Shown in pieces: positions 26,123-53,971 of a DNA stretch of 64,000 nucleotides; the stretch's first letter is position 1; each line of letters begins with the position of its first letter. The notes below the pieces were generated by a model, which did no database searches, was not told the origin of the DNA, and saw only the letters and a program-made list of their open reading frames with translations. The stretch spans positions 11,097-75,096 of the forward strand of contig DAOTVD010000266.1 in the NCBI GenBank assembly GCA_034437075.1, given 5' to 3'. The stretch is from Anaerolineae bacterium. GTDB taxonomy: Bacteria; Chloroflexota; Anaerolineae; Aggregatilineales; J027. A program made the position numbers and the translations under genes.

Positions 26123-27759
26123 AAGACCAGCGCGTTGGTGCCGGGGCGCTCGCCCTCCCAACCATGGTCGGAGACGGAATTTCCGGCCAGGTACATCGTC
26201 GCGGAGCCGCCCCCGTCAAATTCCATGGCTTCGCTCGCGCCGAACTCTAGCAAAAAATCGGCCAGTTCGCGCCGGGTGGCACCGCCGCTGTCTTCGACCT
26301 CATAGCCTTCCACCATCGCAGCGTAGAGTAATGTCGCGCTGTCGTCATAGGCCACAGCCACGCGCGGCAGGCTACTAGCGCCCGCCTGCCGGGCGCGGAA
26401 GTCATCCGTAAATTCTTCGCAGATGGGGTTTTCGGCTGTGGGGTCGCAATCCACGAAGAATTCGCCATTCATCAACAGACGCGGCCCGCCGCTGATAGCG
26501 GATTCGAAGTCTTGCCAGGGCGGTTCGGTCGGTAAGTCAATTTGCAGGGTATCACCGATTTCGACGTTCGCGCGTAGCCAATCGGCGGTGCTGCCTTCGC
26601 CACGTAAGGCGAAATGCCCATCGGGGATGTCTAAGCCTTCGTTATCAACAATCTCTAGCACGGTGAAATCTTCATCCAGCAGCACGCGCAGGCCCCGATA
26701 GCTAAGCGGCAAGCGGTTGGCGCGATGGTGCGAATACAGGCACAGCCAATCGACCTGGCAGGGCAGATTCATCAGTTGCAGGGGGATGACCTCGCCATTT
26801 TCAGCGGTGACGCTCGCGGGCCATGTCCAGCTGGTGGTGAAGTAGCCGATAAACGGTTCGCGGTCGTGTGTCAGACCAAAGGCCGAGCGGAACTTGGGTG
26901 CCGTGACGACCGCGCCATCAATGACCGTAATGCCTTGCGGCCAGTAATTCCCGGCGTAGTAGTCGCCCGTGATGGCCGCATACGCGCCAACGGCTTCGGC
27001 CATTCCGGAAACCGGAATGGCGCGCACGCCAGGAATCGCGCCGATAGTCGTGCCCACGCGCACGCGCTCATCTTGCAAGTTCATCAGCAGCAAATGCACC
27101 TGCATCCGTTCGCGTTCATCGCCAGGGATTTGGCGCCGGATGTAGAGCATGGCGTCGTTGAGCGGAAAAGCGCGGTCGTAGCGCGTCAGGCGGATGTCGG
27201 CGGGCACCCAGCCCGGCATAGGGGCCATAGCTGGGGCCGGGGGCACTTGGTCAAGCGAGATTTCGGGCGTTTCGGCGGTGATGGGTAAATCGGCACAGCG
27301 CCCGAAAATATTGACATTCTCCGACCATACCCAGCCGACTTCGTTCAGATAGGGCGCAGGCAATACCACATGGAACCATTCGCGGTCGGCATCCCGGCCA
27401 AAGACGCGCATTTCCGGGTTTTCCTCGCGGTGTAACAATTGCCGGATGATGCCCCAATTGCTGCTTGGCCCGCGCCGCACGTTAATCAGATATGTCCATT
27501 TGGCCTCGGCATGGCAGGTCATGTGCACGCGCCGTTCGGGGGGGATGATGCCAGGGAGCGCCGCGCCACGCGGCATGTTTAGCGCCGGGGTATCGAGGGT
27601 GCTGGTCGGAAAGGGCGCCAACGAAGCCGTCGCGGTCGGAAAATCCGGCGGGGGTGTTTCTTGACCACGCGCGATAGAACCCGCCCCCGCAAACATCCAC
27701 ACAAGGGCCAACAGGCTTCCGCCAGCTAGACTGAGGAAAATCATCCGGTAATGCTGCAT
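26107..27759 (-). CDS. Secreted phosphodiester glycosidase (DUF2233/NAGPA-like) family protein
   Basis: C-terminal GGPRLLMNGEF...AVAYDDSATLLYAAMVEG...GATRRELADFLLEFGASEAMEFDGGGSATMY. Signal-anchor start at ATG 27759 after GAGGGA. The 27918 ORF start is an upstream extension. Confidence 0.7.
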   Translation of the reverse strand: MQHYRMIFLSLAGGSLLALVWMFAGAGSIARGQETPPPDFPTATASLAPFPTSTLDTPALNMPRGAALPGIIPPERRVHMTCHAEAKWTYLINVRRGPSSNWGIIRQLLHREENPEMRVFGRDADREWFHVVLPAPYLNEVGWVWSENVNIFGRCADLPITAETPEISLDQVPPAPAMAPMPGWVPADIRLTRYDRAFPLNDAMLYIRRQIPGDERERMQVHLLLMNLQDERVRVGTTIGAIPGVRAIPVSGMAEAVGAYAAITGDYYAGNYWPQGITVIDGAVVTAPKFRSAFGLTHDREPFIGYFTTSWTWPASVTAENGEVIPLQLMNLPCQVDWLCLYSHHRANRLPLSYRGLRVLLDEDFTVLEIVDNEGLDIPDGHFALRGEGSTADWLRANVEIGDTLQIDLPTEPPWQDFESAISGGPRLLMNGEFFVDCDPTAENPICEEFTDDFRARQAGASSLPRVAVAYDDSATLLYAAMVEGYEVEDSGGATRRELADFLLEFGASEAMEFDGGGSATMYLAGNSVSDHGWEGERPGTNALVFYWDE

Positions 27760-27836
27760 ACAATCCCTCGTTACTGTGTCTAGCGGAATTTTAGCAGAGC
27801 TAGGGCTACCTTTGAAGATGCCAGCACAAGTGGCCC

Positions 27837-27865
27837 TTGCCAAACGCATATGAGAATGATAAAAA
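27837..27865 (+). promoter_or_regulatory. Candidate sigma-70-type promoter for an intergenic plus-strand transcript
   Basis: TTGCCA (27837-27842), 17-nt spacer, TAAAAA/T (27860-27866). Confidence 0.45.
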
Positions 27866-27871
27866 TTGAGG

Positions 27872-28096
27872 CACGCCTGCTGTGTACGTGATGGTCGCAA
27901 GCCGTTTCGGGCCAACACCTAACTAAGAGGGCGAACGCCGTTCAAGTGTGGATGTGGTAGGCACTGCGGGTGCCAAGACTGATCCACTTGGCAGTTCCCC
28001 CACCTGCGTAAAGCAGGTTCGAAAACGCGCGTTCACACGGCATAGCGGGTGGCTCTTATCTTGACCCCACATTTATCTTTTGGGGTCGTTTTTTTT
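27872..28096 (+). ncRNA. Candidate small structured RNA (unknown family)
   Basis: It is flanked by minus-strand genes only. Stems: CAAGTG(TG)GAT/ATCCACTTG enclosing GGCAC-TGCGG-GTGCC, and CCTGC-GTAAA-GCAGG. The 5' segment CTGCTGTGTACGTG is complementary (with wobbles and a bulge) to CGCGTTCACACGGCA near the 3' end. It ends in GACCCCA-loop-TGGGGTC plus T8 (28063-28096). Confidence 0.4.
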
Positions 28097-28934
28097 ATTC
28101 TTCGGGCGTCGCTTCGTCATTTGGGGGCGGTGCCGCTGGTACAGGCGCTCCGCCGATGGGCGTCGGTGTGGGGATGGGGTCGCTCATGAAGAGTGTAATC
28201 TCGCACGCCGCGCGCGACACCCCAGCCGTATCAAAAACAACCATCCGAAACCGATATTCACCTGGGGCGAAGTTTTGCGGCACGATTGTGCCCAGCGGGC
28301 CATCCGTCACAGGCTCGGTGTAGTCGGACGAGGCCCCGCCGATGACGCCGAAATCGCCGCCCGTTTCGAGGTTGCGAATCTCGAAACGATAGTAGCCAAA
28401 GTCCGCGATATTGGCCGTGCCGATAATCGACTCGGTTTCGTAAATCACCTGGCCATTGCCGGGCAAGCGGATGTTGGCTTGGTCGGAGATGCAGCCCAGC
28501 GGTTCATCGGCGGGCAGGAGTGTTCCGGCGGGGGTGGGGGGGGGCACTGGCGTTTGGGGTAGGATGGGGCCGCCGGCGGGCTGGGTGGGCACCACGAAGG
28601 CTTCTTCGCCTTCTAAGGGCACCGCTGTGCGGAAGATCGCGACGGGCTGCTCGGGAGATGTCTCGCCCGTAGCGCGATTCATATCATCCCAGGTTTGGAA
28701 CATCACGGTCGAAATGAGGTAAACCAGCACGATACCCTGCCCCAACACGATGCTGCGCGTCAGGGCCCAACCGCCGCGCTCCTGCGCTTGTTCGCGTTCC
28801 AGGCGAAACTGCGCGACGGCGAGCGTCGCGCGGGCTTGCCACCAAGCCCGAAATGCCAGCATGATCCCGACCCCGGCTAAGACATAAAGCAGGGGGGCAA
28901 TGGAACGCATCAGGAGCAAAAAGTTCGCAACCAT
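28095..28934 (-). CDS. Hypothetical membrane-anchored Pro-rich protein
   Basis: 279 aa with two N-terminal TM segments. 14 nt downstream of the nucleoside phosphorylase gene. Confidence 0.6.
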   Translation of the reverse strand: MVANFLLLMRSIAPLLYVLAGVGIMLAFRAWWQARATLAVAQFRLEREQAQERGGWALTRSIVLGQGIVLVYLISTVMFQTWDDMNRATGETSPEQPVAIFRTAVPLEGEEAFVVPTQPAGGPILPQTPVPPPTPAGTLLPADEPLGCISDQANIRLPGNGQVIYETESIIGTANIADFGYYRFEIRNLETGGDFGVIGGASSDYTEPVTDGPLGTIVPQNFAPGEYRFRMVVFDTAGVSRAACEITLFMSDPIPTPTPIGGAPVPAAPPPNDEATPEE

Positions 28935-39014: not shown

Positions 39015-39086
39015 GAATAGCCTTTCTGCGTTTTGTGTGCTGCACATAACAAATCAAGCGGCCTTCATGAGCCGCTCGATGGTGTG

Positions 39087-39158
39087 TATCCCCACCAGGA
39101 CTCGAACCTGGGCCTTTGGCTCCGGAGGCCAACGCTCTATCCTCTGAGCTATGGGGAC
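39087..39158 (-). tRNA. tRNA-Arg (CCG)
   Basis: Manual cloverleaf: GTCCCCA TA GCTC AGAGGATA GAGC G TTGGC CT-CCG-GA GCCAA AGGC CCAGG TTCGAGT CCTGG TGGGGAT A. No encoded CCA. Confidence 0.85.
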
Positions 39159-53898: not shown

Positions 53899-53971
53899 CA
53901 GGGGCACGAGGACTTGAACCCCGAACCTTTGGTTTTGGAGACCAACGCTCTGCCAGTTGAGCTATGCCCCT
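53899..53971 (-). tRNA. tRNA-Trp (CCA)
   Basis: Manual cloverleaf: AGGGGCA TA GCTC AACTGGCA GAGC G TTGGT CT-CCA-AA ACCAA AGGTT CGGGG TTCAAGT CCTCG TGCCCCT G. Confidence 0.88.

Follow-up and report, generated by a model that had tools for sequence, protein, structure and literature searches.

Positions 27837-28096 (+) of the 64-kb stretch of DNA that we analyzed (the window, from an Anaerolineales genome of the Chloroflexota) are almost certainly a self-contained 6S RNA (ssrS) gene, which comprises a promoter, a core of 185 nt (27871-28055), and an intrinsic terminator of its own. The family membership, the structure, and the strand of this RNA are established by the analysis below, as is the conservation of the promoter and the terminator. 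It is a correct but ordinary copy of a kind of gene that is already known, and we call it ordinary because 6S RNAs have already been reported in Chloroflexi (in a passage of PMC7726162 that cites Wehner et al. 2014). A first-pass annotation, made from the DNA letters, had proposed a plus-strand small RNA of about 220 nt that was loosely 6S-like and had left the family unassigned; a full-length match to the 6S model now supplies the family. It had also suggested an Rfam scan and a comparative alignment. The scan gave a match well over the curated threshold, and the alignment revealed compensatory changes and conserved positions of the promoter and the terminator.

Identification of the 6S RNA

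A scan of the whole window with Rfam 15 at its curated thresholds gave three matches: two tRNAs and the 6S/SsrS RNA. The 6S/SsrS model (RF00013) scores 68.0 bits on the core (plus strand), where the gathering score is 46.4. It is matched over its full length (positions 1-187 of 187), with E = 2.6e-11 when the whole window is scanned. A repeat scan of a 501-nt region again found RF00013 (E = 2.1e-13) and no rival family. In a permissive scan of 27700-28200, nothing besides 6S scored above 18 bits. Sub-threshold matches to miR-430 and anti-hemB (15-18 bits) lie on the terminator hairpin, and we dismiss them as chance. The length of the core is inside the range of the 6S family, which is given as 153-237 nt with a mean of 183 in a passage of PMC7726162, and the cores of the relatives described below are 173-185 nt long. 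The two tRNA genes are tRNA-Arg(CCG) at 39086-39158 (-) and tRNA-Trp(CCA) at 53899-53971 (-).

The locus

Read directly from the sequence, the gap between the two flanking minus-strand genes is 27760-28094. This is the 335-bp gap that the first-pass annotation described, and it is bounded by the ATG at 27759 and by the stop codon at 28095. The 6S gene within it is an independent unit that is divergent from the NAGPA-family gene and convergent with the 279-aa gene. We consider it to be a separate transcription unit because the positions of the promoter and the terminator are kept on the 6S strand of the relatives. Its features are listed in Table 1.

The 279-aa protein has no match in Pfam. By eye, it has N-terminal hydrophobic segments and a proline-rich middle part. 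In seven distinct relatives, the interval from PNP to the 6S gene codes for a protein of 262-276 aa that likewise has no match in Pfam. On the other side, we noticed a minus-strand promoter-like site (TTCAAA-17-TAAAAT, with an upstream TG) at 27788-27816, back to back with the 6S promoter. This site is placed to drive the NAGPA-family gene.

Table 1. Features of the 6S RNA gene and its neighbors (positions in the window; nt, nucleotide of the RNA core)
Feature	Position	Strand	Basis or remarks
NAGPA-family gene (left neighbor)	start ATG 27759	-	phosphodiester-glycosidase, Pfam PF09992
-35 hexamer TTGCCA	27837-27842	+	direct reading; consensus scan; -35-like hexamer in relatives
Extended -10 TG-A-TAAAAA	27857-27865 (TG 27857-27858, hexamer 27860-27865)	+	direct reading; relatives
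6S RNA (ssrS) core, 185 nt	27871-28055	+	Rfam RF00013; covariation on 43 sequences
Closing stem, 5' strand, nt 2-20	27872-27890	+	pairs with 28036-28053; Rfam structure
Helix P2 (downstream duplex), 5' strand, nt 34-43, GUUUCGGGCC	27904-27913	+	pairs with 28016-28026; Rfam structure
Central bubble, 5' strand, nt 44-58, AACACCUAACUAAGA	27914-27928	+	unpaired in Rfam consensus; presumed product-RNA template
Apical (internal) stem-loop, nt 59-131, with CAAGUG/CACUUG and GGCAC/GUGCC	27929-28001	+	helices 3-7
Central bubble, 3' strand, nt 132-145	28002-28015	+	holds most of the hairpin CCUGC/GCAGG (28003-28017)
Helix P2, 3' strand, nt 146-156, GGUUCGAAAAC	28016-28026	+	Rfam structure; covariation
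Closing stem, 3' strand, nt 166-183	28036-28053	+	Rfam structure; covariation
Intrinsic terminator: hairpin GACCCCA/TGGGGTC, G, T8	28063-28096 (GACCCCA 28063-28069, TGGGGTC 28081-28087, T8 28089-28096)	+	folding; relatives
279-aa gene (right neighbor)	28095-28934 (stop codon 28095-28097)	-	

Relatives of the locus

We gathered 43 Anaerolineae-type sequences in two ways, by synteny and by a motif scan, and all of those that we tested score above the Rfam threshold.

The protein of the NAGPA-family gene is 100% identical to a protein from the metagenome-assembled "Anaerolineales bacterium" (NCBI), and a search turned up 25 further homologues at 42-62% identity. (A protein-pattern scan of reference genomes with this neighbor yielded zero relatives.) We examined the contigs of twelve of the homologues. 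Most of them keep the gene order, in which PNP is followed by a hypothetical protein (about 270 aa), a gap (about 300 bp), NAGPA, LspA, and IleRS. At nine loci, eight of them distinct, Rfam finds a 6S RNA above the threshold (48-65 bits) in the gap that adjoins NAGPA and on the strand opposite to it, even though the NAGPA proteins of these eight distinct relatives are only 52-60% identical. At one of these loci (L013), the 6S RNA is present in the gap though the upstream genes differ, so upstream synteny is lost. We did not find a 6S RNA next to two more distant NAGPA homologues (L010 and L011) or at L014 and L015, where the gap is absent or the contig ends; we regard these four loci as uninformative and not as evidence against the 6S gene.

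A motif scan of one genome per species, with a pattern taken from invariant stretches, found 35 further loci, nearly all of them labeled Anaerolineae, Anaerolineaceae, Aggregatilineales, or Chloroflexota. We re-scanned 18 of these loci, and all 18 were Rfam 6S RNAs (49.8-84.8 bits) with boundaries exactly as we had derived them. The pattern fixes CGTG, GCCAACACC, and CACACGGCA..G.GGGT, so the invariance of these stretches in 35 of the 43 sequences is by construction. The nine synteny-derived sequences are free of this selection, and GCCAACACC in the 5' bubble is invariant among them as well.

Two of the loci deserve comment for other reasons. An Anaerolineae-type 6S RNA (L028:5344-5516 (-)) lies on a 1.02-Mb scaffold (JAHHHY010000001.1) from a bin that is named Pleurocapsa minor, a cyanobacterium. 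It has the same kind of promoter (CTTTACA-17-TGGTATAAC). The G+C content of the surrounding 8 kb is 61%, which seems high for P. minor, so the scaffold may be Chloroflexota sequence in the wrong bin. Also, in an Anaerolineaceae genome, a T-box leader (L030:662-929 (-)), which scores 110 bits where the gathering score is 93, is situated some 6 kb away from the 6S gene.

A conserved promoter and terminator

The promoter that the first-pass annotation described, TTGCCA-17-TAAAAA, is present as stated, with both hexamers and the 17-nt spacer in place; a TG that had been overlooked makes it an extended -10. A consensus scan calls the same promoter as TTGCCA-18-AAAAAT (9/12 matches). By consensus alone, this promoter is not significant: there were 3 such sites in 2 kb, as compared to 0.9 +/- 1.0 in shuffled sequences. 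We consider the promoter to be meaningful despite this chance-level score because it is conserved in the relatives. A strict pattern (a -35-like hexamer, a spacer of 16-18 nt, and TGnTA.A..) is found upstream in 39 of the 43 loci, and in those 39 the distance between it and the closing stem is constant. The -35-like hexamer is TTGnnA, or TTTACA in most relatives, and the consensus of the extended -10 is TGnTATAA(A/C). Of the four loci outside the pattern, one is cut by the end of the contig and three have slight variants. The gene has a putative housekeeping-sigma promoter of the extended -10 class. The spacing predicts a transcription start at 27871-27873, which coincides with the start of the Rfam match.

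The terminator had likewise been read correctly as a GACCCCA/TGGGGTC hairpin and a T8 run. The hairpin has a loop of 11 nt and a folding energy of -11.7 kcal/mol (z = -3.8). A consensus scan for terminators, which was restricted to loops of 3-8 nt, found none; it missed this hairpin because of the size of the loop. Downstream of the 6S RNA and on its strand, 29 of the 43 loci have a hairpin of at least -6 kcal/mol with a T-run, and most of the remaining 14 have a visible GC-rich hairpin with a poorer T-run. From one lineage to another, these hairpins have unrelated sequences; what is conserved is therefore their position and their function. Given the distance from the promoter to the T-run, we predict a primary transcript of about 225 nt.

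The terminator ends in a T-run that shares positions with the stop codon of the 279-aa gene, which is convergent. Read on the minus strand, the same hairpin is followed by AAGATAAG, as the first-pass annotation had noted, and not by a T-run. Read-through from the 279-aa gene would therefore give an RNA that is antisense to the 6S RNA, unless transcription is stopped in some other way. Another observation is that in many relatives (L019, L022, L027-L031, L035, L038, L039, L043, and L048) a run of four or five T comes right after the closing stem (GGGTnTTTT, GGGTnnTTT, or GGGTTTTTT), and the terminator hairpin is a separate element further downstream. The window has no such T-run and reads GGGTGGCTC.

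Structure and covariation

We mapped the consensus pairs of the Rfam model, via the row for the window, onto an alignment of the 43 sequences that was made by MAFFT and is blind to structure. Standard pairs occupy 83.4% of the cells as mapped, versus 38-50% if the partners are slid by 1-3 columns. Changes on both sides of a pair are seen for 29 of 50 pairs as mapped (versus 13-22 when slid), and the covariation score is 0.301 (versus at most 0.11 when slid). None of 500 shuffles attained any of the observed measures of pairing or covariation. For the nine synteny-derived sequences, RNAalifold reports compensatory changes in 14 of 44 predicted pairs. Thus, the rod-shaped fold with its closing and apical stems is supported by evolution.

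The closing stem is 97.8% paired over the 43 sequences, with exchanges between G-C, A-U, and G-U. Helix 2 (P2) has changes on both sides in 6 of its 10 pairs. In the apical region, helices 5-7 are 83-100% paired and have many compensatory changes, while helix 4 is only 58% paired on the MAFFT alignment; this shortfall may reflect misalignment of a variable region. The small hairpin in the 3' bubble, CCUGC/GCAGG, is 97% paired, and its last two G are also part of helix P2. Covariation gives this hairpin little support because it is almost invariant; the one double change is CCUAC/GUAGG in L028.

Several of these helices had been proposed in the first pass. CAAGTG (27943-27948) and GAT (27951-27953) do pair with ATCCACTTG (27982-27990), GGCAC (27960-27964) with GTGCC (27970-27974), and CCTGC (28003-28007) with GCAGG (28013-28017). 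The proposed complementarity between the ends, UGCUGUGU with ACACGGCA, is real, but its register is 5 nt away from the conserved one. We rejected that register of the closing helix: one of its pairs breaks in 16 of the 43 sequences and another in 9 of the 43, while the Rfam register has the near-complete pairing given above.

In the Rfam alignment, nt 44-58 and nt 132-145 have no pairing partners, and both stretches are conserved in sequence. The minimum-energy fold of the single sequence pairs part of the 5' strand of the bubble; it is therefore the consensus model, and not thermodynamics, that speaks for an open bubble. We set this minimum-energy fold aside; its apical region is also partly different.

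Alternative explanations

Both neighboring genes are on the minus strand, so we asked if the structured element might serve them instead, as the 5' leader of the NAGPA-family gene or as the terminator or 3' UTR of the 279-aa gene, with the plus-strand signals being coincidental. The promoter-like site that runs from 27816 to 27788 and the hairpin at 28063-28087, just 8 nt beyond the stop codon of the 279-aa gene, would fit with this. But that site is outside of the RNA, and its transcript would head away from the RNA. Also, the T-runs in 29 of the 43 relatives follow the hairpin on the 6S strand, the minus side in the window has the sequence given above, and the Rfam match is specific to the plus strand. 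The strand is fixed by the G·U pairs, which are mismatches on the minus strand, and by the fold z-scores. G·U pairs make up 315 of 2072 conserved pair cells (15%). They would turn into C·A on the minus strand, so only 68% of the cells would pair there. Relative to shuffles, the fold of 27871-28055 has z = -3.14 on the plus strand (z = -3.96 for 27871-28096, which includes the terminator), while the fold of the minus strand, with z = -0.88, is no better than the shuffles. We consider a minus-strand element to be highly improbable. It is harder still to believe that the region encodes a small protein. The first-pass annotation stated that there is no plus-strand ORF; in fact, there is a mechanical 38-aa ORF at 27948-28064 (+), which starts with GTG and has no coding support, and there is a 49-aa ORF at 27923-28072 (-). 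Many relatives have stop-free stretches that span the core, with a median of 57 codons, which by a rough estimate is about what chance gives for six frames of 180 nt at such G+C. The length of stop-free stretches is uninformative for GC-rich sequence of this size, so we used frame-breaking gaps instead. Among the relatives, there are gaps of 1, 2, 4, and 5 columns inside the ORFs that would shift the frame, and these are therefore incompatible with both the 38-aa and the 49-aa ORF. Furthermore, the plus-strand ORF lacks an ATG start, the substitutions track the covariation of base pairs, and the Rfam RNA model accounts for the whole region.

There is also a slim chance that this RNA has the shape of a 6S RNA and acts in another way, by binding the core polymerase as Ms1 does, by binding the holoenzyme of an alternative sigma factor, or by base-pairing with mRNAs. 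Ms1 is a precedent, as it is structurally related to 6S RNA and yet binds the RNAP core (as stated in a passage of PMC9130861). The 5' bubble of the window RNA, GCCAACACC..., is also unlike the Rfam consensus, and it is the family that points to a 6S function here. Against this, the match to the 6S model is full-length, and the motifs of the 3' bubble and P2 (CCCACCUG...CAGGUUC.AA) fit the consensus. No other Rfam family came near its threshold, and 6S RNAs are reported from Chloroflexi. So we prefer the reading of the gene as a 6S RNA.

Proposed mechanism

The 6S RNAs are rods of about 200 nt with a central bubble that mimics an open promoter, and they bind the primary-sigma holoenzyme (PMC8876501). 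Short product RNAs that are copied from the 6S RNA unzip helix P2, which leads to release, and in gamma-proteobacteria this unzipping lets a hairpin form in the 3' bubble (PMC8876501). The likely function of the window RNA is to sequester the housekeeping RNAP holoenzyme, with release via a short product RNA. From its family, we infer that it is expressed and binds polymerase, that a product RNA is made from a start site within it, and that it then refolds.

The RNA would fold into a rod made up of a closing stem, P2, a large central bubble whose 5' and 3' strands are 15 and 14 nt long, and an apical stem. If it acts like the 6S RNAs that have been studied, this mimic of an open promoter would sit in the active-site cleft of the primary-sigma holoenzyme, and it would damp housekeeping transcription when nutrients are scarce. 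Once NTPs are available again, the 5' strand of the bubble and the 5' strand of P2 would be copied by the polymerase into a short product RNA. The candidate product RNA would be complementary to 27904-27919 (for example 5'-GGUGUUGGCC...); it would be 5'-GGUGUUGGCCCGAAAC if synthesis starts at C49, but this start site is a guess. Copying would unzip P2, and the freed 3' strand would extend the pre-formed hairpin of the 3' bubble to ACCUGC/GCAGGU, upon which the RNA would be released. In a folding calculation with nt 34-49 blocked, as a mimic of the product RNA, the canonical apical stem was kept and this 6-bp hairpin formed.

The 6S RNAs of Anaerolineae might combine the release steps of the E. 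coli type and the Bacillus type. Could they be a distinct mechanistic subtype? This reading is suggested by the invariant C/A-rich GCCAACACC, by a pre-formed hairpin that shares two G with P2, and by the strictly conserved TGnTATAA, but we think it unlikely. In E. coli, promoters with an extended -10 were reported as the class that is most sensitive to inhibition by 6S RNA. Given its extended -10, the 6S RNA of Anaerolineae might repress its own promoter.

Significance

6S RNA is among the best-known small RNAs of bacteria, and the curated Rfam model finds the copy in the window unaided. So this result matters mainly as annotation: it explains a 335-bp gap that seemed to be empty and assigns the promoter and the terminator on its plus strand. 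It also implies that the genome has the global stationary-phase regulator that is expected of most bacteria. What is new is only mildly so and only at the level of the clade, namely the invariant motif in the 5' bubble, the extended -10 promoter, and the synteny with NAGPA. The predicted sequence of the product RNA is testable. The finding as a whole opens no new question about the biology of 6S RNA. The alignment of 43 sequences, with their conserved promoter and terminator, could improve the annotation of 6S RNAs in metagenome-assembled Anaerolineae.

Comparison with known systems

The 6S RNAs of Chloroflexi from Wehner et al. 2014, as cited in a passage of PMC7726162, are from the same phylum and belong to the same family as the window RNA. 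Ms1 RNA from Actinobacteria is a polymerase-binding small RNA with a rod-like, 6S-related shape, according to a passage of PMC9130861. But Ms1 binds the core polymerase and occurs in Actinobacteria, whereas the window RNA matches the 6S model itself. We rejected an identity with Ms1, as the host is a metagenome-assembled member of the Anaerolineales (Chloroflexota) and the sole significant Rfam match at this locus is to 6S RNA.

In 6S-1 of Bacillus subtilis (bsrA), a small hairpin of the 3' bubble is already present in the free RNA (PMC8876501), as it would be here. Also as in 6S-1, the initiating nucleotide of the product RNA is likely to be G, templated by C. Bacillus has two paralogues, while we see one copy within the 64-kb window.

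The 6S RNA of E. coli (SsrS, the type member of RF00013) has the layout that the consensus model predicts for the window RNA (closing stem, P2, central bubble, and apical stem), and it shares the conserved 3'-side motif CCCACCUG...CAGGUUCaA with the window RNA. The 5' bubble is C/A-rich in the window (GCCAACACC) and A/U-rich in the Rfam consensus. In E. coli, ssrS is processed from a transcript that it shares with ygfA; in contrast, the gene in the window has its own promoter and terminator and lies between two genes on the opposite strand. The extended hairpin is predicted to have 6 bp here, of which some can already form in the free RNA, as compared to 9 bp in E. coli. The logic of the gamma-proteobacterial 6S RNAs (PMC8876501) would apply: two G of the hairpin are shared with P2, so unzipping of P2 can extend the hairpin.
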